Shown: one piece after another, positions 9,928-26,662 of the stretch
How the letters are laid out: every line of letters begins with the position of its first letter
Position numbering within the stretch: the stretch's first letter is position 1
From: Prevotella melaninogenica
Lineage (GTDB): Bacteria; Bacteroidota; Bacteroidia; Bacteroidales; Bacteroidaceae
Assembly (NCBI RefSeq): GCF_013267595.1
Contig: NZ_CP054011.1
Location: 540,147-572,146, forward strand
Length of the DNA stretch: 32,000 nucleotides
Direction of reading: 5' to 3'
Program-made: the position numbers and the translations under genes
Notes under the pieces: model-generated
What the model was told of the DNA's origin: nothing
Seen by the model: the letters and a program-made list of their open reading frames with translations, nothing else
The model's database searches: none

Positions 9928-11739
9928 ATGTCAATTCCTTTCAACCCCATTACTATCAGCGTAGGAAAGAAGTCTCTTTCTTCTTTTATTTCTCTACAAA
10001 TCGAACAAAACATAGGTAAACACCACCGATTCCAAATGTCTGTTGAATTGGAAACGGGTAGTAATAGATATGTACATAATATCAATAGCAGCAAGGAATG
10101 GCTCGGAGAAAGCATCGTTGTGAAGGCTGCAAATACTCCTATCTTTGTTGGTGTGGTGACAAATGTACAATTACACAGAGAAGGAAGTGACTTTGGATGT
10201 ATCATCGTTTCTGGCTACTCTGCTACTTACAGACTGGAAACGGCACATAGCTGCTTCTCATGGAATGATAGAACCATTGGGGATGTAGTGAAAAAGCTGT
10301 GCGAACAAGCTAAGGTGCAATTAGAGTTGAATCCTGCATTCAAGGAAACCAAAGACTTTATCTGCCAGTATGAAGAGTCGGATTTCGACTTTATCCGTCG
10401 TCTTGCTCATCAGTATCAAGAGTGGATGTATTTCGATGGAACTAAACTCATCTTTGGTAAACCAAGGAAATTGGCTGACCCTATAAGATTAGAATATGGA
10501 ACAACACTGTCTTCACTTGACATTGGTTTACAGACCCTCGCACGCTCTGAGGAGGTATTCTCTTACCACTCTGGTGCTGACCATGAGATGCAGCGTATGA
10601 CACCAGACTTGGCCTATGGTCATGACAAACTTGCGGGCGATGCTTTCCGTGCATCATTAGGTATGTTCTCAAAACCCGCACGACAGCATGCACTGCCACG
10701 TATCAGCGATGAGTCGGAACTTATTAATTACATGGGGCGTAAGCAGGCGGCTGAGACGGCAGAAACACATTACATCACGGCTGAGAGTCAGGTGCCTACC
10801 CTGCGTGTCGGTTCTGTCGTAAGTCTCTACAGCTCATTCTTGGAACGTGTAGGAAACATATCAAAAGAGAGTTTGGGTAACTTTATCATTATCGAGATAA
10901 CCCATGAGGTGAGCCAAGGCAGCTACTACAAAAACCGCTTCAAGGCTATCCCTGCAACAATAAAGGCACTGCCAAGTCCAAAGGTACGTATGCCATTAGC
11001 AGAGACACAGATGGCAACCGTGCTTAGTAATGCTGACCCACAGGGCAAGGGTCGTGTGCGCGTACGAATGAACTGGCAGACGGATGGTATGCAGACAGGC
11101 TGGGTGCGTGTAATGACACCAGATGGCGGTAGTAGTAAGGACGTAAAGAGCAACCGTGGTTTTGTATTTATCCCAGAGGTAGGCGACCAAGTCCTCCTCG
11201 GCTTCCGTCATGGAGACCCTGCAAGACCATACGTTATGGGTAGTCTCTTTAACGGAACAACAGGTGGTGGCGGTGGTCAGGGTAACAACTGCAAGAGCCT
11301 TACCACTCGAAGCGGTAGTTCCTTGAAACTTGATGATTCCAAAGGAAGTGTTACATTAGCTGATCCTGGGAAAACAAGCATTCACATGGACGGTGCTGGT
11401 AATGCCACATTTGATTCGTCTGACAAAATAATCATCTCCTGTGGTAGTGCTTCCATTGAGTTACACAATGATGGTACAATAAAGATAAACGGTAAGGAGA
11501 TATCAGTTGGAGGCACGGATGTCTCCATAGCAGGTACATCAAGTATTGTAGCTGGCGTGGGGGAAGGTGAGACTCCAAGTACTGGTATTGGTATGTCAAC
11601 AACAGAACTTAATATAAGTTCTTCGAAAACATATATTGATGGATCCAGTGAAACTAGTGTAAGTTCAAGTGGTGGAACAACCTCTGTTACTGCATCAAGT
11701 GAGGTGATTGTAGGCGGAAGCAAAGTAAAACTAAACTAA
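9928..11739 (+). CDS. vgrG: type VI secretion spike protein VgrG
   Basis: 603 aa. gp27-like N-terminal region. gp5 OB-fold motif GRVRVRMNWQTDG...GWVRVMTPDGG...RGFVFIPEVGDQVLLGFRHGDPARPYVMGSLFNG. A Gly run follows, then a Ser/Thr/Gly-rich beta-helix-like C-terminus. Confidence 0.9.
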   Translation: MSIPFNPITISVGKKSLSSFISLQIEQNIGKHHRFQMSVELETGSNRYVHNINSSKEWLGESIVVKAANTPIFVGVVTNVQLHREGSDFGCIIVSGYSATYRLETAHSCFSWNDRTIGDVVKKLCEQAKVQLELNPAFKETKDFICQYEESDFDFIRRLAHQYQEWMYFDGTKLIFGKPRKLADPIRLEYGTTLSSLDIGLQTLARSEEVFSYHSGADHEMQRMTPDLAYGHDKLAGDAFRASLGMFSKPARQHALPRISDESELINYMGRKQAAETAETHYITAESQVPTLRVGSVVSLYSSFLERVGNISKESLGNFIIIEITHEVSQGSYYKNRFKAIPATIKALPSPKVRMPLAETQMATVLSNADPQGKGRVRVRMNWQTDGMQTGWVRVMTPDGGSSKDVKSNRGFVFIPEVGDQVLLGFRHGDPARPYVMGSLFNGTTGGGGGQGNNCKSLTTRSGSSLKLDDSKGSVTLADPGKTSIHMDGAGNATFDSSDKIIISCGSASIELHNDGTIKINGKEISVGGTDVSIAGTSSIVAGVGEGETPSTGIGMSTTELNISSSKTYIDGSSETSVSSSGGTTSVTASSEVIVGGSKVKLN

Positions 11740-11746
11740 TAGTGGT

Positions 11747-13051
11747 ATGAATCCAGTACGATTGGAATTACTAAAGATAGACAGACAATGGTATGAGCAA
11801 GTAAAAGCACATACCGATAAACCACTATTTGTATGCTTAGGCGAGAAGCACACTCTAAACATGTTTGATGTTTATTTTAAGAGTCATGGTGCAGATGAGG
11901 TAGAAAGTGACGACGTTTTCCTTGTGAATTATAAACCATTTGAGGATGCACAGCGGTATGGCGCAGAGCTATTAGAAGAACTACATTTGGTTTATAACTT
12001 GTGGAGAGAACATAATCTGATTTCTGTTCCATGTAAAGAATGGAATACGGACATTGTCGTTCCTAATGATAAAGTAAAGACTGATGCAGGGAATACAGCT
12101 AAGGCGCTAATAGGACTATATGAATCTTTTCCACCACTACGTGGACACAAGATATTTATTCTCTTATCACCACAACAGATAAGTAGTATACCTTTATATG
12201 AACAGTGGCTGTTTGATTGGTGTGCTAATATGAATAGCAGTGATGTCAAGATTGTAGTTCTTGAAAAACATGAAGGTCGGCTGTTAAAGAATCTGCCTGA
12301 AAACAGACATGAATTTGTACTTACTGGTACTGACATTGCTTCTTTGATGAACAATGTGGCTGCCCAGACTGCTGCAGATCCTAATGATGAAGAAAATGTC
12401 CTGCAACAACAAATGTTATTGGCAAACGTTCACTTTAGCAGGCACGAGTTTGATAATGCTCATGTTGCTTTGGCTAAAGCTATTGGCATAGCCAGCCGAC
12501 ACAATCTTAAAGACGTGCTATGTACGGCTCACCTCTTAGATGCTTATGTATGGCTTACACAAAATGAACAGGAGAAAGCACATGACACATTCCGTACTTT
12601 ATTGAGTCTTACTGGTGAAGGTACTTTATTGTCCGCTCAGATGCATGTGAATTATGGTGGTTTCTTGCTTGCTATACGAAGAAAGGAGGATGCAATAGAT
12701 GCGTTTGAGAAATCAGCTGAGATTGCAAAGAATATAAAGAATCCATTATTGGAGATGGAGTGTTATCGTATTATGGGTCAAATACAAGATGGTACATTTA
12801 CAGATTCACAAACCATTGCTTATTATGAGAAGTGTATAGAGATAGGTATGACTATGAACAATGAGGAAAGACAACAAAGTTCATTAGCTTACATAGCTAC
12901 TCTATTACTAAAGAAATATGGAAACTCTAAAAAGACAGAAGAACTTTGTAAACAAATGGAGCAATATTTAGGTGCAGATTGGCAAACTAACATACAAGTC
13001 CCCAACATGGATGACCTATATCATTCACCCTTAACAAGTGTATCCTCATGA
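11747..13051 (+). CDS. unknown 434-aa protein: uncharacterised N-terminal domain plus TPR-like C-terminal half; candidate effector adaptor/chaperone
   Basis: ORF starts 8 nt after the vgrG stop. Its stop overlaps the rhs ATG (ATGA at 13048-13051). The C-terminal ~200 aa show repeated A/L/Y-rich helical pairs. I recognise no known T6SS adaptor motif. Confidence 0.7.
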   Translation: MNPVRLELLKIDRQWYEQVKAHTDKPLFVCLGEKHTLNMFDVYFKSHGADEVESDDVFLVNYKPFEDAQRYGAELLEELHLVYNLWREHNLISVPCKEWNTDIVVPNDKVKTDAGNTAKALIGLYESFPPLRGHKIFILLSPQQISSIPLYEQWLFDWCANMNSSDVKIVVLEKHEGRLLKNLPENRHEFVLTGTDIASLMNNVAAQTAADPNDEENVLQQQMLLANVHFSRHEFDNAHVALAKAIGIASRHNLKDVLCTAHLLDAYVWLTQNEQEKAHDTFRTLLSLTGEGTLLSAQMHVNYGGFLLAIRRKEDAIDAFEKSAEIAKNIKNPLLEMECYRIMGQIQDGTFTDSQTIAYYEKCIEIGMTMNNEERQQSSLAYIATLLLKKYGNSKKTEELCKQMEQYLGADWQTNIQVPNMDDLYHSPLTSVSS

Positions 13052-16000
13052 AGATAATAGCAAAGAAAGCCAATGTAGCGAGTACTGCCGTACAGCATGT
13101 GGCCAAACATTTTGATTTGGTATTAGGCATAGACATTCACTGGACAAAGCTACCTATGCCTCCTTTTCCTCTTCCCTTACCACACCCTTTCATAGGAATT
13201 GTCTTTGACCCCATGGAGTATGCAGACTTCAGCATACCAGTCCCTTCCTTGTTGCAAAAGATGTTCAATCTCCCAGAGAAGATCCCTATGGGAGCATCAG
13301 TGTTTGTTCATGGCCGTATTAAGGCAACAACTACTACATCTGTCTTTGGATTTGGTTGTAATATAAAACCTAAAGGTGGTGCTGCAAGTATGTTAGGAGC
13401 AGCTATGGTTGGGAATATTATACCTATCAAACATATAACAGGTGGTCTACCTTTCTATAAAATCTTCTTAGGAGACTTGGAAGGTCCGCATGATGGTGAA
13501 ATCTATTTTGGTTCGGAAAGTGTCATTATCAATGGTAGTGAGTGCAGTGGATCATTCCCTCAGCAGGTTCTAACTTGTTGGGGCATACCTTTCGGACACC
13601 AATATTTTCCTCCGGCATGGCTTGCTCTCTACCAGCATATATTAACAATGTATGTGCAAATAAATATCAAGCCACCTGTGCTGGTGGGTGGAACTTTTAT
13701 CCCTCATAAGTACACACTCTCTGACATTTTGATGCGTGCAGCAGCTGTACTCTTCATGAAAGCACTGGGAGCTATTGCCAAAAAAGGATTGACCAAATTT
13801 AATCATTTCCTTCAGGGTAAATTCGGTAAGAACCCTATATCTAAATCATTGTGTTTCTTCGGTTTGGAACCAGTGAACTTTGCTACAGGAGCAATGAATT
13901 TCTCTTGGGACGACTTTGAGCTATTGGGAGAGCATACCATTCGTTGGACAAGTGCGTGGCAGAGTGACATTACCTATTCTGGAATCATGGGTAATGGAGT
14001 GATATGTAACTATGACCTGTTCATTATTCCTCAGGATGCAGATGGGGTAGCAGCTTACAATAATCCAAATGAGAATCAAGTATTCCCAATACCAATACCA
14101 GAAATAGGAGGCAAAGAGGAGTATTATCGTTCTCTAAAGTTATGGCAGCATAGACCAAACAAATCTAAATGGATTGTAAGAACAGAGACTGAAATCCGCA
14201 CCTATCGTGCCTTCTCTGACAAGGAGTATGGTACAATATATCTTGCTGAAAGGATAGACTATGTGGGAGGTGGTTTCCTATTGTTAGATTATAGTGGGCG
14301 TAAGCACTTGCTTTCTACTATAGAAGATCACCTTGGACGTCTTATAATCTTTGGACAGGATGAGGAACGAGGTCTTATCCGTTCAGCAATGTATAAACAT
14401 GGCGATGTCATAGACCAATTGGTGGCATACGATTATGATGAAAGGAGTAATCTTATACGTGTACGTGATCGATTTGGTAAGAGTATTGAGTTTGAATATG
14501 ATGATGCTAATAGAGTGGTTCTACGTCGTAACCGCAACAATATGACGTATACATGGGAGTATGACGCTGAAGGACGTGTTATCCATACTACTGGTGAAGG
14601 TGGTATACAGGAAGGATATATATCTTACCATGACGGATATAACGAAGTAAAATACTCTGCCACAGGGGCTACGGAACAGTATTATTATGACGAAAACAAC
14701 CTTGTATATAAAAAGGTGGATGCCATGGGTGGTGAGACCTGGTATGGTTATAATTCTTGGCATGAGCGAACATTGGTAGGTACACCAGAGGGTAAGGTCG
14801 TAGGATATGATTATGATGACCGTGGTAACCTTATAAGATTGACGGCTGCTGACAGAGCTGAGACTGTTTATGAGTATGATGAGCATAATCGCCTAATAGC
14901 ACGTACGGATGCTGCTGGTAATAGAGAAGAATGGGTCTATGATAAAGAGACAGCATTGTTGCTGAAACATAAGGAAGCGGATGGTACTGTTGTTACTTAT
15001 ACATACGAGAAGGATAAGCAGCAGCCTTCTGCTATTGAGTATGGTGAAGAACTACGTGCTGTTCTACAATATGACACTTTAGGATTAATCTCAAATATTA
15101 CGGACGGGCATGGCGTTTGTGAAACATTCGCTTACGATGACTATGGCCGTCCACTGAAGCACAGGCATGCTGACGGGAATAGTACAGAATGGCAGCGTGA
15201 CCGACTTGGCCGTGTTACTCGCTACGCAACTCCTGGACAGAGCGTGATGCGCATCTCCTACGATGCCTACGACCTGCCTGTTGAAGTTACCAGCGGCAAT
15301 GAAGTGTGGACTATGGAGTACACTCCTATGGGTAACCTGCGCCGTCAGACACGACGGACGAGCAGTATGCGCATGGTCAGTGCGCTGAACTATGAGTATG
15401 ATTCCTATGACCAACTGAAGTTTGTCGAGAACGAACACGGTGAACGCTACTTCTTTGAACGTAACCTTAATGGTGAGGTGATTTGTGAAAGGGGCTTTGA
15501 TGGATTAGAACGTCATTATATCCGTGACCTTGACGGCACGGTGATTACTACACAGCTTCCTGATGGTACGGCTGTGCATCATCAGCATGACCAGGCTGGA
15601 CGGCTTACCTATAACAAGTACACCGATGGTAGTTGGGAGGCTTGGGAGTACGATAAGGCAGGACGGCTCACCAAAGCGTACAACAGAGACAGCGTGACGG
15701 AGTTCGTGCGTAATGCTTTGGGGCAGGTTATAAAGGAAACGCAGGACGGGCGTACAGTGGAGCATAAGTATGATGAGCGTTCCCGACTATCAAATATCGT
15801 CAGTGCATTAGGAGGAAGTATTACCTACGGATATGATATAAAAGGCACTGTCAACCACATATCAGCTGGTATGTCAGGAAAGAGGAAGCCTTGGGAAGCG
15901 AATATAGCATACGATAGGTTCGGGCGTGAAACTTCACGCATAATGTCTGGTTGTGTAGAGAATACTATGCAATATGACAATGTCGGTCGTCCTGCACATC

Positions 16001-17337
16001 AGCGTGTCCAGCATAATGGGCGAACACTGCTTGACAAGTCATACCTCTGGGGTGACAATCTTCGTCTTCTACAGGCGCTTGACACAATAAACCGCAGAAG
16101 TGTCCGTTACGATTATGATACCTTCGGTTCTCTGTCAGGGGCTGTTTATGGTGACGGTAGTTGTCAGTGGCGTAACCCAGATGCAATGGGTAATGTGTAT
16201 GATAGCCCCGACCGAACGGACAGGAGTTATGGTCGTGGTGGACAGCTGCGTGAGGACAAGAAGTGGCGGTATTATTATGACAGCCATGGCAACCTTGTGC
16301 TGAAGACCATGCGCAGGTCGGGACCATCCCTTGATGCTGGGATGCGGGATAAGTTCCTTCAATGGCAGAGCGGTGACTATGCCTATACGTGGCAGGGCAA
16401 TGGTATGCTTAGAAGTGTAACACGGGCTGACGGCAAAACTGTAACGTTCAAGTATGACGCTTTAGGCAGACGCATTGAGAAGGTCTTTGACGGACGAGTA
16501 TATCGCTACCTCTGGGATGGTGATGTCATTCTGCACGAGTGGGACTATGCCGAGGCTGACCGCCCGAACACGATTGTTACCGAGACTGGTGAGGTCACAC
16601 TCGACAGGCCAGAACCAGTTGAGAATCTCATCACATGGGTTTACGACAGTGACAGCTATGTCCCTACAGCCAAGATTGTCGGCGACAGGCATTACAGCAT
16701 CATCAGCGACTACATCGGTCGTCCTGTCCAAGCGTACGATGATAATGGTAATGTTGTCTGGCAGGCAGACTATGACATCTATGGTAATCTCCGCAATCTC
16801 CACGGCAGCAGGAAGTTCATTCCTTTCCGCCAGTTAGGACAGTATGAGGACGAGGAAACTGGGCTCTATTACAACAGATTTAGATATTATGATCCAAGGA
16901 TTGGCAATTACATCAGTCAAGACCCGATAAGGCTGGCAGGAACAGGTTTTAACCTATATGCCTATTCTAAAGATAGTAATATTGATTTTGATATTCTCGG
17001 CTTAGAATGCTGGAGTACAGCAAGAAAAAAGTTTTGGCAGCAAGAGGCAAAAAATAATCCTCATTTGTACTCTTCGAATAACTTAGCAAGAATGGAAAAG
17101 GGGAAAGCCCCCAGAATGACAATACAGGTCTTGAATCCCAAGACAGGTAAGATAAGTGTGAAGGATGTTTCTATGGAGTTACATCACAAGTTTCTTCCCC
17201 AACGAGGCGGAGGTCAGGCTGCAAACAAAGCATGGAATTTGACAAAAGCAACCCCATGGGGACACGCTTCGATGGATTCCTATAGACATACTGGATATAA
17301 ATTAATAAAAGTGATTAAAGGAACAAACTCTTGGTAA
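13048..17337 (+). CDS. rhs: Rhs-family polymorphic toxin (T6SS effector) with C-terminal colicin-type HNH DNase
   Basis: 1429 aa. DUF6531-like GLEPVNFATGAMNFSWDDFELLG. Many YD repeats (YDYDERSNLIRVRD, YEYDDANRVV, WEYDAEGRVI, YEYDEHNRLIARTDAAGN...). Core end is YYNRFRYYDPRIGNYISQDPIRLAG...DILGL. The last 110 aa (17005-17334) read RKKFWQQEAKNNP...MEKGKAP...MELHHKFLPQRGGG...NL..ATPWGH. Confidence 0.92.
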   Translation: MKIIAKKANVASTAVQHVAKHFDLVLGIDIHWTKLPMPPFPLPLPHPFIGIVFDPMEYADFSIPVPSLLQKMFNLPEKIPMGASVFVHGRIKATTTTSVFGFGCNIKPKGGAASMLGAAMVGNIIPIKHITGGLPFYKIFLGDLEGPHDGEIYFGSESVIINGSECSGSFPQQVLTCWGIPFGHQYFPPAWLALYQHILTMYVQINIKPPVLVGGTFIPHKYTLSDILMRAAAVLFMKALGAIAKKGLTKFNHFLQGKFGKNPISKSLCFFGLEPVNFATGAMNFSWDDFELLGEHTIRWTSAWQSDITYSGIMGNGVICNYDLFIIPQDADGVAAYNNPNENQVFPIPIPEIGGKEEYYRSLKLWQHRPNKSKWIVRTETEIRTYRAFSDKEYGTIYLAERIDYVGGGFLLLDYSGRKHLLSTIEDHLGRLIIFGQDEERGLIRSAMYKHGDVIDQLVAYDYDERSNLIRVRDRFGKSIEFEYDDANRVVLRRNRNNMTYTWEYDAEGRVIHTTGEGGIQEGYISYHDGYNEVKYSATGATEQYYYDENNLVYKKVDAMGGETWYGYNSWHERTLVGTPEGKVVGYDYDDRGNLIRLTAADRAETVYEYDEHNRLIARTDAAGNREEWVYDKETALLLKHKEADGTVVTYTYEKDKQQPSAIEYGEELRAVLQYDTLGLISNITDGHGVCETFAYDDYGRPLKHRHADGNSTEWQRDRLGRVTRYATPGQSVMRISYDAYDLPVEVTSGNEVWTMEYTPMGNLRRQTRRTSSMRMVSALNYEYDSYDQLKFVENEHGERYFFERNLNGEVICERGFDGLERHYIRDLDGTVITTQLPDGTAVHHQHDQAGRLTYNKYTDGSWEAWEYDKAGRLTKAYNRDSVTEFVRNALGQVIKETQDGRTVEHKYDERSRLSNIVSALGGSITYGYDIKGTVNHISAGMSGKRKPWEANIAYDRFGRETSRIMSGCVENTMQYDNVGRPAHQRVQHNGRTLLDKSYLWGDNLRLLQALDTINRRSVRYDYDTFGSLSGAVYGDGSCQWRNPDAMGNVYDSPDRTDRSYGRGGQLREDKKWRYYYDSHGNLVLKTMRRSGPSLDAGMRDKFLQWQSGDYAYTWQGNGMLRSVTRADGKTVTFKYDALGRRIEKVFDGRVYRYLWDGDVILHEWDYAEADRPNTIVTETGEVTLDRPEPVENLITWVYDSDSYVPTAKIVGDRHYSIISDYIGRPVQAYDDNGNVVWQADYDIYGNLRNLHGSRKFIPFRQLGQYEDEETGLYYNRFRYYDPRIGNYISQDPIRLAGTGFNLYAYSKDSNIDFDILGLECWSTARKKFWQQEAKNNPHLYSSNNLARMEKGKAPRMTIQVLNPKTGKISVKDVSMELHHKFLPQRGGGQAANKAWNLTKATPWGHASMDSYRHTGYKLIKVIKGTNSW

Positions 17338-17339
17338 AT

Positions 17340-17804
17340 ATGAATAAGTTAAATGAATTTATTAACGGGGAAAAATATGAATTTCTCCTGAGGAACATAC
17401 AAAAAAAAAGTAATATAGAGATTGATAGTACCATCCCTTTTGTATTGTTAGATTATGACAAAGAAATGTTAATAGCCGCACGAATTGAAATAGAAGATTT
17501 AGAATCTTTACTTAACTCATACATGACGGAAATAGTTTCTTTTGTTGAAAGAAAAATGAAATATGATTTTGAGGATGAGGATGAATATCCTGAAGGGGAA
17601 GAGCTAAGTGATGACGAAAAGCCTAAAACCATTATTGAACTACCCTACTATAAAAATTTTTTGATTGCTTATCTAATAGAGTACTATTTGCTTAAAAAGC
17701 AGCCTGCAGAATTAGGTAAATATTTAAAGAGGATACACATTTCGCATGCAACTAAATACGAAAGAGATTTGAAGGATATATGGAGAGAAACTTTGGAGAG
17801 TTGA
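17340..17804 (+). CDS. candidate immunity protein for the HNH DNase tip (acidic, not Im9-like)
   Basis: The ATG lies 2 nt after the rhs stop. The ORF-track start at 17331 is a TTG. 154 aa with the acidic run DFEDEDEYPEGEELSDDEKP. AT-rich like the toxin tip. Confidence 0.7.
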   Translation: MNKLNEFINGEKYEFLLRNIQKKSNIEIDSTIPFVLLDYDKEMLIAARIEIEDLESLLNSYMTEIVSFVERKMKYDFEDEDEYPEGEELSDDEKPKTIIELPYYKNFLIAYLIEYYLLKKQPAELGKYLKRIHISHATKYERDLKDIWRETLES

Positions 17805-17907
17805 AGCGACTTAACTGAAATAAAGGTTCTTCCGTTAAATACTTTGACTTATTTCGTATAGATTTAGCGGAGGAACCGAGGTTATGCGTTAAACAAACAG
17901 ATAGCCA

Positions 17908-17934
17908 AGACAGTCTTGACTGTCTGTTTTATTT
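17908..17934 (+). terminator. terminator-like hairpin after the immunity gene
   Basis: AGACAG TCTTGA CTGTCT (17908-17925) followed by GTTTTATTT. An outer pairing AAACAG/CTGTTT is also possible. Confidence 0.5.
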
Positions 17935-17990
17935 ATCCTCCGACACAGAATACCTTACCATTTTAACGCTTCGAAAATTTGGAGATAAGA

Positions 17991-18242
17991 CATTGAAAAG
18001 TCATGACATTATTTCGAATAAAACGTCTAAAATAAAGTGGAAAAACACGTATAAACAGCAAGATTGCAACCAACAGAAAATCAATTGGTTATGAAGTCGT
18101 ACAAGAAAAGGTGCTTGGTAAGGGTTCAAAAGGGCGTTAGTAAGACCTCAAAAGGGCACCTATTGCAAGTCAATCAGGCGTCTTTTCAAAGCCAAAAGAG
18201 CATATATCGATTTTGAGTCGTATGAAAATAGTTTACAAGTAT
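17991..18242 (+). repeat. ~250-bp noncoding repeat, copy P (inverted partner Q at 26717-26968)
   Basis: Shared colinear blocks with the reverse complement of 26717-26968: CATTGAAAAG, TAAAATAAAG, AAAAACACGTA, AACCAACAG, AAAGGGCGTTAGTAAGACCTCAAAAGGGC, GCGTCTTTT[C/G]AAAGCC, AAAAGAGCA, AAAATA[G/T]TTTACAA[G/A]TAT. Confidence 0.7.
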
Positions 18243-18453
18243 CGGTTAGTATAGGGATAAGTTGTTTGTAGAAGACAGAAAGATATGATAATGGGTAGAC
18301 ATAGTATTTATTATCTGGGGTGATAATCTTCGTCTTCTGCAGACGCTTGACACAATAAACCGCAGAAGTGTCCGTTACGATTATGATACCTTCGGTTCTC
18401 TGTCAGGGGCTGTATATGGTGACGGTAGTTGTCAGTGGCGTAACCCAGATGCA

Positions 18454-19692
18454 ATGGGTAACGTGTATGATAGCCCTGACCGAACGGACAGGAGTTATGG
18501 TCGTGGTGGACAGCTGCGTGAGGACAAGAAGTGGCGGTATTATTATGACAGCCATGGCAACCTTGTGCTGAAGACCATGCGCAGGTCGGGACCATCCCTT
18601 GATGCTGGGATGCGGGATGAGTTCCTTGCTTGGCAGAGTGGTGATTATGCCTATACGTGGCAGGGCAATGGTATGCTTAGGAGTGTAACACGGACGGACG
18701 GCAAAACCGTTACTTTTAGGTATGACGCTTTAGGCAGACGTATTGAGAAGGTCTTTGACGGACGAGTATATCGCTACCTCTGGGATGGTGATGTCATCCT
18801 GCACGAGTGGGACTATGCCGAAGCTGACCGTCCTAACACGGTTGTTACCGAGACTGGTGAGGTCACACTTGACAGCCCAGAACCTGTTGAGAATCTCATC
18901 ACGTGGGTTTACGACAGTGACAGCTATGTCCCTACAGCCAAGATAGTTGGTGACAGGCATTACAGCATCATCAGCGACTACATTGGTCGTCCTGTACAGG
19001 CATACGATGATAAAGGTAATGTTGTCTGGCAGGCAGACTATGATATCTATGGTAACGTCCGCAACATTCACCGCAGCAGGAACTTTATCCCCTTCCGCCA
19101 ATTAGGTCAGTATGAGGACGAGGAGACTGGACTGTATTACAACAGGTTTAGGTATTACGACCCAGGTTCGGGTACTTATATCAGTCAAGACCCAATTGGG
19201 TTGTTGGGAAGTAACCCAACACTGTATGTACATGTTAAAGATGTAAATACACAAGTAGACTCCTGGGGATTATTAAATGAATTTGGGATTGCTGGATATG
19301 GAACTTCACCACATATAAAAGATGGATTAAGTGCCCACGAATTATTACAAAATGCCTGGCTAAGAAATAATGGTGTCATTACAAGTAGAGCATCAGGAAT
19401 TGCAAAGAATAATCCTGCTATGGCACTACAAGAGAAAATGATGCATAAAATAATATCTAAATTACAGGCACAGTATGGATTACATAATCCAAATGTGTTA
19501 AAGAAACAAACAGCATTACAAAATATAAATAGAAACACAGCATTAACCAGAAGAGGTATTTATGAAGATCTCGTAAAAAATAGAGGTTGGGAACCTTATA
19601 ATGCTAAACAATTCGCAACAGAAAAAGCTATGAAGTTGAGGGAAGAAGCTATAGAGTTTGCGAAACAAAATGGTTTAATTAAATATAATTAA
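18454..19692 (+). CDS. orphan rhs C-terminal cassette 1 (5'-truncated Rhs core plus unassigned 139-aa toxin tip)
   Basis: Nucleotides 18314-19193 are colinear with 16046-16925 of the main rhs gene at a constant offset of 2268. The frame is open from 18292 and the first ATG is at 18454. The core ends at DSWGL, then a unique tip runs 19273-19689. Confidence 0.85.
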   Translation: MGNVYDSPDRTDRSYGRGGQLREDKKWRYYYDSHGNLVLKTMRRSGPSLDAGMRDEFLAWQSGDYAYTWQGNGMLRSVTRTDGKTVTFRYDALGRRIEKVFDGRVYRYLWDGDVILHEWDYAEADRPNTVVTETGEVTLDSPEPVENLITWVYDSDSYVPTAKIVGDRHYSIISDYIGRPVQAYDDKGNVVWQADYDIYGNVRNIHRSRNFIPFRQLGQYEDEETGLYYNRFRYYDPGSGTYISQDPIGLLGSNPTLYVHVKDVNTQVDSWGLLNEFGIAGYGTSPHIKDGLSAHELLQNAWLRNNGVITSRASGIAKNNPAMALQEKMMHKIISKLQAQYGLHNPNVLKKQTALQNINRNTALTRRGIYEDLVKNRGWEPYNAKQFATEKAMKLREEAIEFAKQNGLIKYN

Positions 19693-19694
19693 TT

Positions 19695-20252
19695 ATGAAC
19701 AAAGTCGCCAAAATCAGTTTAGACTCATCATCCACAGAAATAGGTAGAATAGGAGGAAATATACCGACTTGTTTTCTGGAGAAAAAGGAAAATATAGAGG
19801 GATTTAAATTTTATATGACAATTCAAAATCCTGATAATTCAGACGAATATATATCTATCTTTGTACCAGATAGCTACGATACAATGGTGGATGAAAATAT
19901 TTATCCCAATTGTTCAATAAAGGTTTTTACCCATTCGTTTTCTGTAGAGAGTAGTAATAACTTTTATACATTGAAAGAGCTTCATAAATCATCCCTTATG
20001 GGATACAAAGAAGTAGAAAATGAGGAATTTGATTTTGTCACAAAAACTCAGCATCCTCAGTTAATCCAGTATGAGGATTATTATTTAAAAAAATTAGATG
20101 AAGATGGGTTCACATTCTATTTGCAAATCGATGAAGATTATTATCCGGAAAATCTTCTTTCTGGGAATTATATATTGGGGTATGGTGCACTATATTTATA
20201 CAAACATAAAATCACAGGTAATATAATAGTTGGCTTTTGGCAATATTCATAA
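19695..20252 (+). CDS. candidate immunity protein for cassette 1 (DUF1963/YwqG-like pattern, tentative)
   Basis: Starts 2 nt after the cassette-1 stop. 185 aa. IGRIGGNIP...FKFYMTIQ...HPQLIQYED...FTFYLQIDEDYY...GYGALYLY resembles the DUF1963 pattern as I remember it. Confidence 0.6.
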   Translation: MNKVAKISLDSSSTEIGRIGGNIPTCFLEKKENIEGFKFYMTIQNPDNSDEYISIFVPDSYDTMVDENIYPNCSIKVFTHSFSVESSNNFYTLKELHKSSLMGYKEVENEEFDFVTKTQHPQLIQYEDYYLKKLDEDGFTFYLQIDEDYYPENLLSGNYILGYGALYLYKHKITGNIIVGFWQYS

Positions 20253-20360
20253 TTCGTTTTAACGCTATGTGTAAAAGAATGATGTCTCCTAATAACAACA
20301 CTGCCACATTTAACTACAAAACATTTAATCTGATGAGTCGAGAAGGTCTTTGACGGACGT

Positions 20361-21248
20361 GTGTATCGCTACCTTTGGGATGGTGATGTCATCCTGCACG
20401 AGTGGGACTATGCCAAAGCTGACCGCCCGAACACGATTGTTACCGAGACTGGTGAGGTCACACTCGATAGGCCTGAACCAGTTGAGAATCTCATCACGTG
20501 GGTTTACGACAGTGACAGCTATGTCCCTACAGCCAAGATAGTTGGTGACAGGCATTACAGTATCATCAGTGACTACATCGGTCGTCCCGTCCAAGCATAC
20601 GATGACAAAGGTAATGTCGTTTGGCAGGCAGAATATGACATCTATGGCAACCTCCGTAATCTCCATGGCAGCAAGAAGTTTATTCCTTTCCGTCAGTTAG
20701 GTCAGTATGAGGAAGAGGAGACTGGTCTGTATTACAACAGGTTTAGGTATTATGACCCAAGGATTGGTAATTATATCAGCCAAGATCCGATAAGGTTGGC
20801 AGGAGGAAACCCTACGATTTACGGATACGTTAAAGATTTAAATTCGTGGGTGGATTCTTTTGGGCTAGAAAATATTATTTTTACATCTTCTGACGGATTT
20901 ACTTTGGAAGTTAGAAATGTGCAAGATTTAAGTCATTTATCAAATCGTGAAATACTAGATATCTATCATGCCAATAATAATCCAAAAGGATATGGGAAAT
21001 CTCCCAAACATGCAAATGGCGATACAATTATTTTGCATCATCAAAATCAAAATCATTTAGGGCCAGTGATAGAGATGCCAAATAGTGGTCATGTTCGAGG
21101 TCTTGGAAATAAAAAGATGCATCCATATTTTCCAAATCCACATCCAACTAATCCTGTAGATAGAGACGTATTCAACAATTGGAAAAAAGAATATTGGAAA
21201 TACCGAGCAGAAACTGAGATTAAGAAAAGAGGTTTATCTTATAATTAA
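20361..21248 (+). CDS. orphan rhs C-terminal cassette 2 (short core fragment plus HNH/EndoVII-fold, LHH-like nuclease tip)
   Basis: 20340-20804 is colinear with 16477-16941 at offset 3863. The frame opens at 20337 just after TGATGA. The ORF-track start is a GTG. The core ends at DSFGL. The tip (20868-21245) contains GDTIILHHQNQNHLGPVIEMPNSGH. Confidence 0.8.
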   Translation: MYRYLWDGDVILHEWDYAKADRPNTIVTETGEVTLDRPEPVENLITWVYDSDSYVPTAKIVGDRHYSIISDYIGRPVQAYDDKGNVVWQAEYDIYGNLRNLHGSKKFIPFRQLGQYEEEETGLYYNRFRYYDPRIGNYISQDPIRLAGGNPTIYGYVKDLNSWVDSFGLENIIFTSSDGFTLEVRNVQDLSHLSNREILDIYHANNNPKGYGKSPKHANGDTIILHHQNQNHLGPVIEMPNSGHVRGLGNKKMHPYFPNPHPTNPVDRDVFNNWKKEYWKYRAETEIKKRGLSYN

Positions 21249-21258
21249 AAGTATTTTT

Positions 21259-21678
21259 ATGAAAACAGAGTTAATTGAAAGAATAAATAGTTACTTAAAC
21301 AAGTATCAATCATTCAATCCACAACCGGCAAATGATAAAGATATTAAACAAGCAGAGGTAATGTTAAATGTAGTCTTTGATTCAGATTATAAGCAATTCA
21401 TAAAAACCTTTGGGGGATGCTATGTTGGGGTGGATATTTATGGAATCAGAAGTTCAAATGACTTAAAAGAGAAGACAGTTGTTGATCTAACTAAGTTATA
21501 CAAAGAAGCTGGTTGGGCTATTGCAGATGATTGTTATATTATTTCATTTGATTCATCAGGCAATCCAATCATGATGAATAAATCGGGAGAGGTTGTTCTT
21601 TTTGATCATGACAACGGAGACTCTGTTATTTTAGCAAACTCTTTTGAGGAATTAATTGAAGACAATCTTCCTGATTAA
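21259..21678 (+). CDS. SMI1/KNR4 (SUKH-1) family immunity protein
   Basis: 139 aa, 10 nt downstream of cassette 2. Characteristic SUKH pattern: ...IKQAEVMLNVVFDSDYKQFIKTFGG... Confidence 0.8.
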   Translation: MKTELIERINSYLNKYQSFNPQPANDKDIKQAEVMLNVVFDSDYKQFIKTFGGCYVGVDIYGIRSSNDLKEKTVVDLTKLYKEAGWAIADDCYIISFDSSGNPIMMNKSGEVVLFDHDNGDSVILANSFEELIEDNLPD

Positions 21679-21901
21679 AATAAGATTACAGGCGACATTG
21701 CTATTAGAGTAGGAGACTTTCGCATATACCTATCAAGATTATAACCAACGGAGAGATTTTCGTCTTCGTTTCCTACAACCTCGATATACCCTGCAGGCAT
21801 TTAATAACAATGGCAAAAAGGGATGAGAGTAGGAACTTGACGCATTCGGCAGAAAGAGGAAAGGCAACAATAATTCCTCCTTCATTCCATTTAAATATTA
21901 G

Positions 21902-22252
21902 GGTCAGTATGAGGATGAGGAGACTGGGCTGTATTACAACAGGTTCAGGTATTACAATCCAAAGATTGGTAATTATATCAGCCAAGACCCTATAAGGTTG
22001 GCAGGAGGAAGCCCTACGCTGTATGGTTATGTTAGAGATGTTAATATAGGACAGGATATATATGGGCTTGATATCTCCTATAAAGGTGATGTTTTACCAT
22101 ATCAAATAAGATATAATCCAACTTGCCCAGGTCGGCCCGATCCTAGGTATTCAATTACTACTACTTTTGATGGTGGAACACCTACAGCAAAAGGAGGGTT
22201 GATAGACAATAAACAATTTTGGAAAAAATGGGAAAACTTAACCCAAGTTTAA
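21902..22252 (+). pseudogene. orphan rhs C-terminal cassette 3, lacking a start and truncated at its 3' end by IS insertion
   Basis: 21902-22006 is colinear with 16837-16941 at offset 5065 (GQYEDEETGLYYNRFRYYNPKIGNYISQDPIRLAGG). A TAG lies immediately upstream at 21899-21901. A unique tip starts after IYGL at 22070. The reading frame runs into the IS inverted repeat at 22237 and stops inside it. Confidence 0.8.
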
Positions 22253-24350
22253 CCGGCAAAATTATTTTTCATAAATTTTCGGGATGTTTTGTGTAGTATC
22301 AATTTGATAAATGATTGATAATCAAGTATAGGGTATTGTAACGAGGAGTAAAATCTGATTTGTAGGACACAGCCATATCAAAAATATTTTGTTACTTTGC
22401 ACTCATGCACGCAAATGTACAGACACGATTCAACCCTGCCACAGGCGACATGGCTCCTTATTATCGCATCAAGGAGTCATATCGTGACGTGCAGGGTCAT
22501 GTACATTCGCTAATTCTGTTGAACATAGGTTTTGAACCTTCACTTACTGCTGTACAGGTTCGAAAAATTGCATACGCTCTTACCGAACGCTTCAAAACCA
22601 GAAGTACACCCTCGCTTTTCAAAGAACGCCTTGAGGGACTTACTCCTATTGAACAGGCAAAGGCTGACGAATGGTGGAGCCGTATGGAGAAAGAAGGTGG
22701 AATCGATCGGTTTAATAAGGAAGAGCAGAAGTCGCTGAGAAAATATGAGAACTACATTGACCTCGAGACGGCAAACTATACTGACGCAAGGAATGTTGGT
22801 GCAGAGTGGCTCTGCAAGCAGACGATAGACAAGCTGCAGTTAGAGGGTTTTCTGCGCAAAAACGGCTGGACGGAGAATGCGATACACACGGCTTTGTCAG
22901 CATTGATTGTTCGCACGGTATATGCAGTCTCTGAACGTTCATCTTATTATTATTTGCGCGATAACTCAGCTGCTGGCGAACTTTACAGTGGAGTTCCTGG
23001 CTGGACACCAGGGATCAATTCTCTGTATAAAATCACCGACAAGTTATATGAACTAAAGGAACAGTTAGAGCGTCATCTGTGCAGCGTTACTGACGATCTC
23101 TTTAATATAGACAACAAGTTGATGCTCTTCGACTTAACCAACTTCTATTTCGAGGGTAGTAAGCGTAATAGCGATAAAGCCAAGTTCGGTCGTTCAAAAG
23201 AAAAACGCTCTGACTGTAAGCTACTTGTACTTGCATTATGTATCAATAAAGAAGGTTTTATACGTTATTCTTCTATCTTGGAGGGTAATACAGCAGATCC
23301 CAAGTCTCTACCCAATATGATTGATACGCTGGCAAAGAGGAATCCATCACGAACCAAGGATACGCTCGTTATCATGGATGCAGGTGTTGCCACGGAAGAG
23401 AACTTGGAGTTAATAAAGAAAAAGGGTTACAATTATCTCTGCGTATCTCGTACGAAAATGAAAGACTATACGCTCAGTGATGATAACAAGAGCGTTACAG
23501 TAATGGATGCCCGTCGGCAGAAGATAACGCTGAAAGAGGTTAAGACAGAGGATGATGAGGATTATTATCTCGAAATAACATCTCCTTCGAAAGCTATGAC
23601 AGAGTCGTCCATGAACAGGGTTTGGAGAGAGCGTTTTAAGATGGACCTGCAGAGGATAAACGAAGGAATCTCCAAGAAAGGTGGAACGAAAACCTATGAA
23701 AAGGTTGTTGAACGTACAGGACGTGCCATACAGAAGTACCCTTCTATAGCGAAGTTCTACCAGATAAGCTACATAAAAAATGAGAAGAAACCCAAGGAGA
23801 TGCTACGTGTAGACTGGGAGATAAAAGACCTCTCGGCAATGGAATCTGGTCACGGAGTCTATTTCCTCCGCAGCAATGTCAGGACACTTTCTGAGCGTGT
23901 GACATGGGAATACTACAATCTCATTCGTGAAATAGAATGTACGAACAGACAACTAAAGAATGATCTCAACCTCCGTCCTATCTATCATCAGAAAGATGAG
24001 CGAAGCGACGCACACCTCTTCTTCGGTTTATTAGCCTACTGGGTGGTAAACACTATCCGTTGTCAATTAAAACGAGAAGGAGAATCCTGTTACTGGACCG
24101 AGATAGTACGACGTATGAGTACCCAAAAGCTCGTCACCACAAAAGGGAAGAATCCATTAGGTGAGAACACCGAGATGCGCCAATGTAGTAGTCCTTCAAA
24201 GCAAGCAAAACAGATATACGATAAGTTGAACTTAAAACACTCACCATTCAAAAAGAATAAAATTTGTAGGACACAGAGCCCATAAGAAAAATGAGGAAAG
24301 TACGGTAACAGTAACAATTAGGCGAAGCTGGGTGTTAAACTTGGGCTAAG
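22237..24350 (+). mobile_element. IS1634-family (IS4 superfamily) insertion sequence, copy 1, ~2.1 kb
   Basis: Imperfect 17-bp terminal inverted repeats: CTTAACCCAAGTTTAAC (22237-22253) and GTTAAACTTGGGCTAAG (24334-24350). One long transposase ORF. A near-identical copy starts at 30821 in the opposite orientation. No flanking target-site duplication is visible. Confidence 0.85.
22405..24285 (+). CDS. IS1634-family DDE transposase
   Basis: 626 aa. The N-terminal ...APYYRIKESYRDVQGHVHSLILLNIGF resembles the conserved N-terminus of IS1634-group transposases (...SLVESYR...G..RQ...LG). Confidence 0.85.
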   Translation: MHANVQTRFNPATGDMAPYYRIKESYRDVQGHVHSLILLNIGFEPSLTAVQVRKIAYALTERFKTRSTPSLFKERLEGLTPIEQAKADEWWSRMEKEGGIDRFNKEEQKSLRKYENYIDLETANYTDARNVGAEWLCKQTIDKLQLEGFLRKNGWTENAIHTALSALIVRTVYAVSERSSYYYLRDNSAAGELYSGVPGWTPGINSLYKITDKLYELKEQLERHLCSVTDDLFNIDNKLMLFDLTNFYFEGSKRNSDKAKFGRSKEKRSDCKLLVLALCINKEGFIRYSSILEGNTADPKSLPNMIDTLAKRNPSRTKDTLVIMDAGVATEENLELIKKKGYNYLCVSRTKMKDYTLSDDNKSVTVMDARRQKITLKEVKTEDDEDYYLEITSPSKAMTESSMNRVWRERFKMDLQRINEGISKKGGTKTYEKVVERTGRAIQKYPSIAKFYQISYIKNEKKPKEMLRVDWEIKDLSAMESGHGVYFLRSNVRTLSERVTWEYYNLIREIECTNRQLKNDLNLRPIYHQKDERSDAHLFFGLLAYWVVNTIRCQLKREGESCYWTEIVRRMSTQKLVTTKGKNPLGENTEMRQCSSPSKQAKQIYDKLNLKHSPFKKNKICRTQSP

Positions 24351-24406
24351 TGTTATAAGAGGAATATTCGCAAGGATATTCCTCTTTTTATTTTGATTAT
24401 CAATGT
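24351..24406. repeat. right copy of the ~56-bp direct repeat (partner 8479-8534), including a second copy of the terminator hairpin
   Basis: Begins exactly at the outer end of IS1634 copy 1. See the feature at 8479-8534 for the alignment. Confidence 0.8.
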
Positions 24407-24712
24407 GATATAGCGTTATAAATTATATTTTTAATGGGTTAGTCCTAAAACCCAGTTGCAAGCCTATCCTCTTAAGCACACAATTTCATAAGTCTATATA
24501 AAAATATTGGTGTCCGATAAAACTTTTTTGGAGTTATCTGTGTTAGTTAAAATAGACTTAAACTTATGATTTCATTAATTTATCTGGTTATTATAGGGCT
24601 TTCCTTGTCAATATAAGCACATTTTATAATGCTTACAGTTTGAAACTGAAAACCAAGCCCCCTGGATAAGTAAAACGGCTGTAACACCGATGAGTAAAGA
24701 GATACAGAGCTT

Positions 24713-25585
24713 TCATTTTATTTTTACCGGACAGCAATAATATAAAAAGAAAGGAATATCTGTCACTCCTCTGAACTGTGCCCTGAATGCCTTAACTTTA
24801 GCATTGAATGACTCGGCATTTGCATTCGTAGCTCTGTTTACAAAGAAATTGAGTATGGTTTGATAATGATTTTCAAACGTGTCAATCACTGTGTAGAAAT
24901 TGTCCACTCCTAATTCTTCTACCTCATTAAACCATTTTGCTAACTTCAGCCTTGCGGCATCCTTGATGCTCTTGATGTTATAAATATCGGTAAGTTTCAT
25001 AGCCAAATCATACGCCTTTTTCAGTGTTGGATAATGTTCAAAGATGATTTGTGCTCTGTCTTTCTGTGTTTCAGTCCACTTACTCTTGTGCTTGGTCAAT
25101 ATGAACTTTGCTCTGGCGAGCAACTGCTTACGCGTGTCACCATTGCTGTATCTAAATGGTATATATTCCTTTCCCTTGCTTTTAGCTTCTTTTATCTCCT
25201 CGTTCTCTTTATCTCTTGCCATCCATCGGTAAGCAATACGCATGTCATCCAGAGCATCATAAAATAGTTTCTGTACATGAAACCTATCATTGGTAATAAG
25301 TGCTTTGGGAAAAACGGCACGGGCTATGCGCATCATAGAAGATGACAAGTCGAGTGTTATCTCCTTGACTGTCTTCCGTTTAGAAAGGTTTATCTTCTTG
25401 AGAACCTGAATAACATCCTCTGCTTTGGTCCCTTTAACCACAGCTATCAAAGTCCCTTTTCTGCCCTTTCCCGCCTTGTTGGTCAGAAAAGTATAAACCT
25501 CGCCACTGCTTAGACAGGTCTCATCGATACTTAGATTCTCACCTATGTTATCTTCAAACAATAGCCAGTCTTGAGCATGATCCAA
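24713..25585 (-). CDS. ISL3/ISAon1-like transposase, catalytic ORF (+1 frame relative to the N-terminal ORF)
   Basis: The ORF track gives 290 aa from a TTG start. The same frame is open up to 25708 and there encodes KNRIESTAESIASIGAHYGVNGKLLSTQYKEYFSDYRSW. Contains IDETCLSSGE...LITNDRFHVQK, typical of ISL3-type DDE transposases. Confidence 0.8.
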   Translation of the reverse strand: MDHAQDWLLFEDNIGENLSIDETCLSSGEVYTFLTNKAGKGRKGTLIAVVKGTKAEDVIQVLKKINLSKRKTVKEITLDLSSSMMRIARAVFPKALITNDRFHVQKLFYDALDDMRIAYRWMARDKENEEIKEAKSKGKEYIPFRYSNGDTRKQLLARAKFILTKHKSKWTETQKDRAQIIFEHYPTLKKAYDLAMKLTDIYNIKSIKDAARLKLAKWFNEVEELGVDNFYTVIDTFENHYQTILNFFVNRATNANAESFNAKVKAFRAQFRGVTDIPFFLYYCCPVKIK

Positions 25586-25700
25586 CTGATCCCAGCTACG
25601 GTAATCACTGAAATATTCCTTGTACTGTGTGGATAACAGCTTACCATTTACGCCATAGTGCGCACCGATACTTGCGATGCTCTCTGCAGTGGACTCAATT

Positions 25701-26045
25701 CTATTCTTTTAAAAAAGAAACGAACTCGGGGGATAATTTACTGCCCTCGGCCGTCAAGTCATCATATGAATAAGTAAATATCTCTCCGTTGGAACTGTCA
25801 CGCCACTTGCGACGGCGAACATGGAGGTAAACTGCTTTGCCACGGAGGGGGAAGTCCTGAATTACACGCTCGCTGGTAAAACCATAACTGCTTACAGTGC
25901 CTAACTTATGGTCTGACTTTTCCATAAAGTTACGCTCGTCAAGCCAAAAGTCAAACTGGCAAGCACTCTCTTGAATATCGACAACATCAAAGTAGTCGGC
26001 AAGTACATCTGGAAATATGCAACGTAATAATTGGTGACTCTTCAT
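25701..26045 (-). CDS. ISL3/ISAon1-like transposase, N-terminal ORF
   Basis: 114 aa. ...VIQDFPLRGKAVYLHVRRRKWRD... is typical of the N-terminal region of this transposase group. Ends at TAG within ...TTT TTA AAA GAA TAG. Confidence 0.8.
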   Translation of the reverse strand: MKSHQLLRCIFPDVLADYFDVVDIQESACQFDFWLDERNFMEKSDHKLGTVSSYGFTSERVIQDFPLRGKAVYLHVRRRKWRDSSNGEIFTYSYDDLTAEGSKLSPEFVSFLKE

Positions 26046-26246
26046 GATGCAAAGGTAATAAATACTTATGAAATTATGCGCTTAAGAGTATAGGCTTGGA
26101 ACTGGGTTTTAGGACTGCCCCATTTTTGTATGCCTAAAGGTACAAAAACTTTAGGAAATAGCAAAGCCCTGGCTTGAGAAAGTCGGGGCTTTGTGCATAA
26201 AAAAGAGGATGTGGACATTTTGACACACCCTCCTTGTTGTTCCAAG

Positions 26247-26319
26247 TGATTCGCATGGGGCTCGAACCCATGACCCCAACATTAAAAGTGTTGTGCTCTA
26301 CCAACTGAGCTAGCGAATC
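26247..26319 (-). tRNA. tRNA-Lys (anticodon TTT)
   Basis: 73-nt cloverleaf on the minus strand. Acceptor GATTCGC/GCGAATC. D stem GCTC/GAGC. Anticodon stem CAACA/TGTTG with loop CTTTTAA, so the anticodon is TTT. T stem ATGGG/CCCAT with loop TTCGAGC. Discriminator A. Confidence 0.9.
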
Positions 26320-26344
26320 TCCCTATGCTTTTATAAAGCGAGTG

Positions 26345-26352
26345 CAAAGGTA
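26345..26352 (-). promoter_or_regulatory. Bacteroidetes -7 promoter box for tRNA-Lys
   Basis: TACCTTTG on the minus strand, 25 nt upstream of the tRNA 5' end. Same octamer as upstream of tRNA-Arg. Confidence 0.45.
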
Positions 26353-26469
26353 ACAAGAATTTCTGATAATTCCAAATTATTTATAACTTTTCTTGTGCCT
26401 TTTTATTAATACATGGCTATTTGATGAAATCTTTTAGTGTGAGACATGATGATTTCCAGCAGGATAAGA

Positions 26470-26662
26470 GTTAACCCCAAATCGGTTATGTATAATTCTT
26501 ATTACTATAGTGTTGTTTCTAAACATCTTTTATTTTCTTATCGCCATCTTGTGTGTCTTTGTAACTTGACGTAGCCCGTTACGCCTGCGTTACAACGACA
26601 GGCAATCTGCTCGATAAGAAAACAAAAACTGTTTAGGCTCTAATGACCGATTTGGGTTAAAC
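26470..26662. repeat. ~190-bp imperfect palindromic (MITE-like or structured-RNA) element
   Basis: Outer arms GTTAACCCCAAATCGGT (26470-26486) and ACCGATTTGGGTTAAAC (26646-26662). Inner arms ...CTAAACA..TTTTCTTATCG and CGATAAGAAAA..TGTTTAG. Central TTGTAAC...GTTACAA. Confidence 0.6.

Follow-up and report, generated by a model that had tools for sequence, protein, structure and literature searches.

How does a bacterium come to store, behind one complete rhs toxin gene, further toxin ends that lack a start region, and can such a store be drawn on again? The question is raised by a stretch of 32,000 nucleotides of Prevotella melaninogenica (NCBI RefSeq assembly GCF_013267595.1, contig NZ_CP054011.1, positions 540,147 to 572,146, forward strand; the whole stretch is called the window, and unprefixed coordinates count from its first letter). 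In the window, a full-length rhs gene, here called the main gene, is followed by three orphan fragments of its 3' core (O1, O2 and O3), each ending in a different C-terminal tip (rhs-CT). The explanation that we consider probable is that of a type VI secretion system (T6SS) cargo module, encoding Hcp, VgrG, a TPR protein and Rhs, combined with an array of orphan rhs-CT/immunity cassettes that is shuffled by recombination.

Architecture of the orphan array

The features of the array are as follows.

13048 to 17004, + strand: main rhs gene without its tip (N-terminal domain, DUF6531, YD/RHS repeats, RHS-associated core, end DILGL; Pfam, TIGR03696)
17005 to 17337, + strand: main tip T0 (110 aa), divergent HNH/EndoVII nuclease, Tox-HNH-HHH / colicin DNase-like (Pfam)
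17340 to 17804, + strand: immM, candidate T0 immunity gene by position (154 aa, no family match)
17823 to 18313, + strand: conserved non-coding spacer with a terminator-like hairpin at 17908 to 17925
18314 to 19272, + strand: O1 core fragment (main aa 1000-1319, end DSWGL; frame open from 18292)
19273 to 19692, + strand: O1 tip T1 (139 aa), C-terminal toxin domain, distant Tox-SHH relative
19695 to 20252, + strand: imm1, candidate T1 immunity gene (185 aa, no family match)
20337 to 20867, + strand: O2 core fragment (main aa 1143-1319, end DSFGL)
20868 to 21248, + strand: O2 tip T2 (126 aa), LHH nuclease of the HNH/EndoVII type (PF14411, E 5.1e-10)
21259 to 21678, + strand: imm2, SUKH / SMI1_KNR4 immunity protein (PF14567, E 8.4e-20; PF09346, E 1.6e-16)
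21791 to 22252, + strand: O3, dead chimeric remnant (degenerate core, TAG at 21899-21901, core end 21902-22069, stub from 22070)

The orphans lie on the same strand as the main gene and consist of 3' core without N-terminus or start region. A reading of the sequence alone had proposed three such same-orientation repeats over 16046-22252, and its coordinates, including the offset of 2268, were recovered almost to the base. Positions 16046-16925 of the main gene match 18314-19193 of O1 at this offset without indels, with mismatches at 66 of 880 positions (92.5% nucleotide identity) and 15 non-synonymous differences in 293 codons (~95% amino-acid identity). The match of 16477-16941 to 20340-20804 in O2 (offset 3863) and that of 16837-16941 to 21902-22006 in O3 (offset 5065) are likewise free of indels, with 41/465 mismatches (91.2%) and 15/105 mismatches (85.7%), respectively. 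The three core repeats are real and far beyond chance. In-frame stop codons just 5' of the orphans (18289-18291 for O1, 20334-20336 for O2, 21899-21901 for O3) agree with the earlier statement that none has an N-terminus of its own.

All four copies end in a DxxGL motif, beyond which they diverge completely into tips of 110 (main), 139 (O1), 126 (O2) and 60 (O3) residues. The motifs and the first three tip lengths are as originally described (DILGL, DSWGL and DSFGL); the fourth motif, given there as IYGL, is DIYGL, and the tip behind it is a truncated stub. The GC content is ~50% in the core copies and ~30% in the tips and the genes after them. The most conserved stretch of the core is its last ~100 nt, coding GQYEDEETGLYYNRFRYY...DxxGL.

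The differences between the core copies are mostly silent. Between the main gene and O1, 44 codons differ synonymously and 15 non-synonymously, and 52 of the 66 mismatches fall at codon position 3; for O2 the corresponding values are 35, 5 and 38 of 41. The O1 and O2 cores thus evolved within translated Rhs genes and are not old pseudogenes. Such a pattern would be expected if the fragments diverged inside translated Rhs and were orphaned recently, or if they occasionally passed through an expressed position. The longest identical tracts measure 141, 70 and 56 nt between the main gene and O1, 50 and 41 nt between the main gene and O2, and at most 11 nt between the main gene and O3; the length of those shared with O1 and O2 suffices for RecA-type recombination. 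Clustering of the mismatches between the main gene and O1 (P = 0.0006) points to gene conversion.

In O1 and O2 the reading frame runs uninterrupted from core to tip and an immunity gene is adjacent; O3 has neither. The candidate immunity open reading frames (ORFs) begin 3-11 nt past the stop codons of T0, T1 and T2. T0 matches Tox-HNH-HHH (E 1.3e-5) and colicin DNase (E 3.4e-3) in Pfam, both just below the cut-off. The tips had been described as unrelated, which holds for their sequences and fails for their families: T0, T2 and a full-length relative of the O3 tip (T3) all match HNH/EndoVII nucleases. T1 itself gave no direct match in Pfam, NCBIfam or PDB sequence searches, and a BLASTP comparison of T1 with a Tox-SHH tip from another assembly (locus L080, below) found nothing. 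Its relatives are always C-terminal, also in RHS- or PT-HINT-containing proteins 1300-5500 aa long, and only 1 of 32 T1 homologues reaches Tox-SHH, from which we conclude that T1 is probably a polymorphic-toxin domain distantly related to SHH nucleases. The AlphaFold model of T1 is poor in its N-terminal half (mean predicted local distance difference test score, pLDDT, 68). A word-indexed protein search with T1 returned short proteins only, and is uninformative on main or orphan position, since long Rhs proteins cluster by core. imm1 follows T1 in every locus seen (10 further loci). T1/imm1 and T0/immM are candidate new toxin-immunity pairs.

Relatives of these cassettes occur in a second genus. 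Tannerella forsythia ATCC 43037 (L031 12335-12679 and 13581-14415) carries a T0 relative (51% amino-acid identity), a T2 relative (43%) and a SUKH immunity relative (37%) as neighbouring orphans, and in a Tannerella metagenome-assembled genome (L023 10880-11224) the core runs straight into a T0 relative as its tip. Oral Bacteroidales genera therefore have cassette families in common.

Tip exchange among strains

To find the same locus elsewhere, an exact look-up of the TPR protein was used, which located it in human oral metagenomes; L numbers denote the loci compared, L001-L079 being sampled genome loci. The closest species-representative genome is that of Prevotella jejuni DSM 26989, in which the core copies have 83-93% protein identity. 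Across assemblies of the locus, the window and oral metagenomes together, at least three different tips are found on the same full-length gene: T0 in the window, a Tox-SHH tip (T23) followed by an SMI1 immunity gene in L080 and L081 (97-98% nucleotide identity), and T27 in L104 (core 97% identical at the protein level). The VgrG and TPR neighbours at the alternative-tip loci are the same as in the window. T23 and T27 are also present as orphans (L090, L091, L093-L095, L097, L099), and the T0-immM-spacer block of the window is an orphan in L120, located after T1-imm1; T23, T27 and T0 thus occupy both positions. In other bacteria (L122-L125 and L128), full-length Rhs proteins that belong to other families terminate in T1-like tips (78% amino-acid identity). 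Alternative tips on the main gene and orphan tips on full-length genes are the two observations that the sequence-only reading had looked to for support. The opposite outcome that it had named, orphans existing as decaying pseudogenes and never on full-length genes, is not what was found, and the frames of O1 and O2 are open.

In L080, L081 and L115, T0 has been lost except for an identical 3' remnant of 22 nt, with the breakpoint at window position 17316, and immM is intact (L080 7486-8072; L081 7198-7784; L115 from 188 onward). This is one replacement event that has spread, and it suggests selection for keeping immM. L080 and L081 lack O1, and the core of their LHH orphan is longer.

One and the same cassette junction can lead into many tips. 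Seven of them (T1, T16, T60, T25, T6, T27 and T10) were found after the junction of the spacer with the core at aa 1000, and T2, T27, T16 and, in L120, T0 after the junction between the sequence downstream of imm1 and the core at aa 1143; T27 is found behind both types. L112, L113 and L115 match the window perfectly over 1.2-1.8 kb. L112 and L115 then turn ~13% divergent from 18477-18609, inside the O1 core, and L112 and L113 go on to a different tip. These cases represent recent homologous exchanges. On the main gene, the tip change in L080 and L104 reflects a crossover within the last ~25-100 nt of the core.

O3 provides a further example. Its homology had been placed from 21902; a degenerate core (main aa 1227 onward, 57% amino-acid identity) reaches back to ~21791, across the TAG codon. 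The segment from 21679 to ~21945 is a 92% match to the sequence after imm2 in L104 and L100-L109. From the conserved block coding GQYEDEETGLYYN onward, O3 is a 94% match to another cassette, the Tox-HNH-HHH orphan of L104 (E 8e-39). These matches of its two halves to two different cassettes mark O3 as a recombinant with its crossover in the conserved core-end block. The tip T3 is a 60-aa stub of a Tox-HNH-HHH tip and has no immunity gene. Its homology ends at ~22240, where the terminal inverted repeat CTTAACCCAAGTTTAAC of an insertion sequence (IS) begins, and the open frame ends inside this repeat; the nuclease domain and the immunity gene were lost at the IS insertion at ~22237. O3 is dead and unusable as a cassette.

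In the mechanism that we propose, a new tip with its immunity gene would replace the 3' end of the full-length gene (C-terminal displacement), and the old tip, still attached to part of the core and followed by its immunity gene, would be pushed downstream. The array would then be re-sorted by homologous recombination among the conserved core fragments, and a stored tip could reach the full-length gene by a crossover in shared core, either through a chromosomal deletion or through exchange with DNA of another strain.

Weighing the explanations

The sequence-only reading had attributed tip exchange to core recombination, with deletion of the intervening DNA. The breakpoints within cores and the alternative tips bear out the first part; no deletion joining the main gene to O1 or O2 was seen. 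Deletion-type switching within the source strain is plausible, the evidence being of the between-strain kind. Several points weigh against the probable explanation given at the outset. No fusion of the main gene to T1 or T2 was found among ~30 distinct contigs listed with imm1, imm2 or a T1 tip; in all of them these tips are orphans. The crossovers in L080 and L104 do not lie deep in the long homology that the main gene has in common with the orphans. The comparisons are between strains throughout, and could reflect DNA exchange between strains instead of deletion in one chromosome. The Rhs N-terminus (aa 1-271) has no Pfam match at E <= 1, PAAR included, and of the T6SS genes the window contains only Hcp and VgrG and none of the core genes. 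Finally, there is no Bacteroidetes-type promoter motif in the spacer, so that expression of the orphan immunity genes is unsupported.

Some of these observations would be met equally by an array that is a one-way fossil record and immunity bank, in which the main tip changes only by foreign import and displaced tips are never re-used. What maintains the array would be the protection that the stored immunity genes give against neighbours; the toxin fragments would be passive. Displacement alone also predicts a tip that is main in one strain and orphan in another. The absence of T1 and T2 from this main gene in the contigs listed, the decay of O3, and the terminator-like hairpin after immM with no promoter motif ahead of O1 are what such a bank would look like. 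Retention of immM after the loss of T0 in L080, a pattern that L081 and L115 share, supports this account, which is a serious rival. Against it stand the fully open toxin frames of O1 and O2 and their mostly synonymous core divergence; seven tips at one junction and T27 at two junction types need recombination between core copies, and nothing bars the core of the main gene from taking part in it. In addition, re-activation of an orphan has been shown experimentally in Salmonella (PMC3967940). On balance we regard the one-way account as rather unlikely, and retain the recombination-shuffled array as the better explanation.

Expression of the orphans was considered separately. The hairpin at 17908-17925 lies after immM and ahead of O1, and scans for the TAnnTTTG motif (Bacteroidetes -7) and for sigma-70 motifs revealed no convincing promoter ahead of O1 or O2, with counts near the shuffle expectation. 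O1 and O2, which have no start region of their own (O1 also sits behind the terminator-like hairpin), are most likely silent as toxins. The orphan immunity genes may be expressed and protect against neighbours that fire those toxins. That the orphans are instead expressed themselves, from internal starts (ATG at 18454 in O1, GTG at 20361 in O2), as small toxin-antitoxin-like modules, would be in line with the open frames of 412 (O1) and 295 aa (O2) from these starts and with an orphan Rhs of Salmonella reported as a type II toxin-antitoxin-like module (PMC7043789). The spacer has no promoter-like motif of the Bacteroidetes type, though, the internal ATG is present in the main gene too and is not orphan-specific, and a truncated Rhs shell without N-terminal plug and secretion domain has no known export route; we hold self-expression to be very improbable.

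The conserved spacer at many cassette boundaries is the least explained feature of the locus. It is ~480 nt long with a nearly invariant central block, and lies at many loci of several Prevotella species in front of orphans with a core beginning near aa 968-1003. Further copies are located at L015 8727-9193 and L002 14349-14815; the spacer is also found alone and, as a partial copy (26717-26968, - strand), upstream of the tRNA-Lys gene of the window. An Rfam scan of 17300-27400 returned tRNA-Lys and sub-threshold noise only, with nothing for the spacer, and in consensus folding and pair counting its stems were mostly invariant with weak covariation, which supports no RNA claim. It is conceivable, if doubtful, that the spacer is a functional cassette-boundary element, which would insulate the active operon and drive or regulate the stored immunity genes, or set the sites at which cassettes join. 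If true, either role would give the array a defined modular architecture that has not been described for enterobacterial arrays.

An assembly artefact or chance similarity, which the known tendency of Rhs repeats to break or collapse short-read assemblies (PMC4714493) might bring to mind, can be dismissed, as mismatches at 66, 41 and 15 positions and distinct tips set the copies apart and independent assemblies have the same arrangement (L092/L110, GCA_000163035.1, with a 100% identical spacer; L111, 99.98% identical to the window over 6083 nt).

Genomic setting, known systems and significance

Upstream and downstream of the array the window contains the following features.

8399 to 8474, + strand: tRNA-Arg(TCT) (ARAGORN)
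9354 to 9752, + strand: Hcp / TssD tube protein, Bacteroidota type (PF17642 TssD, E 6.1e-45)
9928 to 11739, + strand: VgrG spike protein (Phage_GPD, Phage_base_V; TIGR01646/TIGR03361 below cut-off)
11747 to 13051, + strand: TPR protein (434 aa; weak TPR matches, tblastn synteny)
22237 to 24351, + strand: IS element with terminal repeats CTTAACCCAAGTTTAAC and DDE_Tnp_1 transposase (22405-24285)
24352 to 24435, + strand: array-end repeat remnant, copy of the tRNA-Arg downstream flank

The module is preceded by the housekeeping genes dnaN, coaBC and recN and by the tRNA-Arg gene. With its tip, the main gene spans 13048-17337 and encodes 1429 aa; the YD/RHS shell repeats match PF05593 in five stretches (E 1.1e-45) and TIGR01643 (E 1.1e-37), and the RHS-associated core TIGR03696 occupies aa 1242-1314. 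Hcp and VgrG are encoded upstream and adjoin the Rhs module, as in a T6SS cargo-type setting; these two neighbours alone suggest that Rhs is delivered by a T6SS. The stop codon of the TPR gene overlaps the rhs start. In Hoylesella, Chryseobacterium and Taibaiella, related Rhs genes likewise have the TPR gene as their immediate upstream neighbour (tblastn), and we therefore infer for it an adaptor or chaperone role. Between tRNA-Arg and Hcp, the region 9000-9350 is very AT-rich (21.5% GC in 9000-9199) and has no ORF of at least 60 aa; TAnnTTTG motifs at 9134 and 9162 are candidate promoters for the module.

At the distal side, the sequence directly 3' of the IS element (24352-24435) is the one that closes the array in other strains, which argues for an IS-linked deletion that would have removed the rest of the array in the source strain. 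The same IS, cutting the O3 tip, is present in L080. A second copy (30821-32000, - strand) lies inverted relative to the first; the two, with a 626-aa DDE_Tnp_1 transposase, are 97% identical. The ~6.5 kb between the two copies, which include an ISL3 element, tRNA-Lys and the genes for an amino-acid carrier and a sulfatase, could be inverted by recombination. Such an inversion was considered as the reason for the truncated array; the sulfatase at the array end in other strains is, however, a different gene from that of the window. The ISL3-family element (24433-26124) has 67-nt terminal inverted repeats; it is probably inactive, its transposase being divided between two minus-strand ORFs (24713-25585 and 25701-26045).

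A repeat of the tRNA-Arg 3' end and ~170 nt of its downstream flank (8459-8639) is found at the distal array end, in the window as a remnant at 24352-24435 and elsewhere at L090 16851-17009, L103 18105-18276 and L120 15415-15583. Direct repeats thus bracket the Hcp-VgrG-Rhs-array block in the manner of a tRNA-linked island, and no integrase gene was seen; conceivably, the entire block is a mobile island with the tRNA-Arg flank repeats as its boundaries.

The closest counterparts are the enterobacterial orphan rhs-CT/rhsI arrays of E. coli, Salmonella LT2 and Dickeya (Poole 2011, PMC3150448; Koskiniemi 2014, PMC3967940). As there, a full-length rhs gene at a T6SS-linked locus is followed by same-strand 3' core fragments without start region, each with a tip after a DPxGL-type motif and an immunity gene, and the core homology is the substrate for recombination. 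The Prevotella array differs in phylum and T6SS subtype (Bacteroidota-type TssD), in the conserved ~480-nt spacer that marks many cassette boundaries, and in that related Prevotella arrays are much longer, with up to 11 core-end copies in 20 kb. Whereas re-activation was demonstrated by experiment in Salmonella, the Prevotella array is known here from sequence comparison. Among the sampled loci, a small set compared without statistics, at least three core ends occur in Bacteroidales of oral or host-associated origin (P. jejuni, Hoylesella, Porphyromonas circumdentaria and Tannerella forsythia); the Chryseobacterium, Chitinophaga, Taibaiella and Niastella loci have a single core end within 20 kb.

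The C-terminal displacement model of rhs evolution (Jackson et al. 2009, as cited in PMC13183296) agrees with the stepwise shortening of the homology downstream, with AT-rich tips and immunity genes (~30% GC) beside a core of ~50%, and with the retention of the displaced immM in L080. Junctions common to many tips, in contrast, indicate extensive later re-sorting with no age-ordered stack, and O3 is a recombinant too. Within the Bacteroidota, Ornithobacterium hominis and Bergeyella cardium (Flavobacteriales) carry a large RHS gene with an orphan-tip array and immunity genes; the O. hominis accessory genome holds 26 orphan tip genes, and tips are common to genera of the human airway and mouth (PMC13183296). 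That study treats the tips as pseudogenes and contains no breakpoint or main-versus-orphan analysis; the array described here belongs to the Bacteroidales (Prevotellaceae) and has a different Rhs core.

Acquired interbacterial defence (AID) islands and recombinase-associated AID (rAID) islands of gut Bacteroidales (Ross 2019, as cited in PMC12483513 and PMC10470768) also contain immunity genes without an active cognate toxin in the same cell, which probably protect against T6SS toxins of neighbours. AID islands consist of immunity genes alone and rAID islands have a tyrosine recombinase and flanking repeats. Here every immunity gene follows a toxin tip and core fragment and adjoins the weapon, and no recombinase was found among the main + strand ORFs scanned over 9354-22252. 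An AID island was rejected as a description of this locus, since toxin fragments are present and no recombinase was among those ORFs. CdiA-CT/CdiI and MafB orphan arrays share the conserved pre-toxin sequence, variable tip, immunity gene and tandem storage (PMC3150448; PMC9263626), and differ in their delivery proteins and secretion routes (type V secretion for CdiA; MafB in Neisseria). A survey of T6SS in gut Bacteroidales, which left out all Prevotella species except P. copri and P. stercorea, noted PAAR-Rhs effectors and did not describe orphan arrays. In the literature searched we found no analysis of orphan rhs arrays in Prevotella or Bacteroidales, the Bacteroidota precedent being O. hominis.

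Collectively, the locus represents a known type of system, the enterobacterial-type orphan array, in the little-studied oral Prevotella, and comparison among strains documents the shuffling of cassettes with unusual clarity. It leaves the accepted view of how Rhs evolves unchanged. Oral Prevotella are abundant, yet their interbacterial warfare has received little study. Few regions of their genomes vary as much as the Rhs loci, and strains that are identical over kilobases differ in the toxin with which they are armed and in the immunity genes that they store. With many public metagenomes at hand, the locus offers a natural system for measuring the rate at which the toxin and immunity repertoire turns over in a human-associated community.

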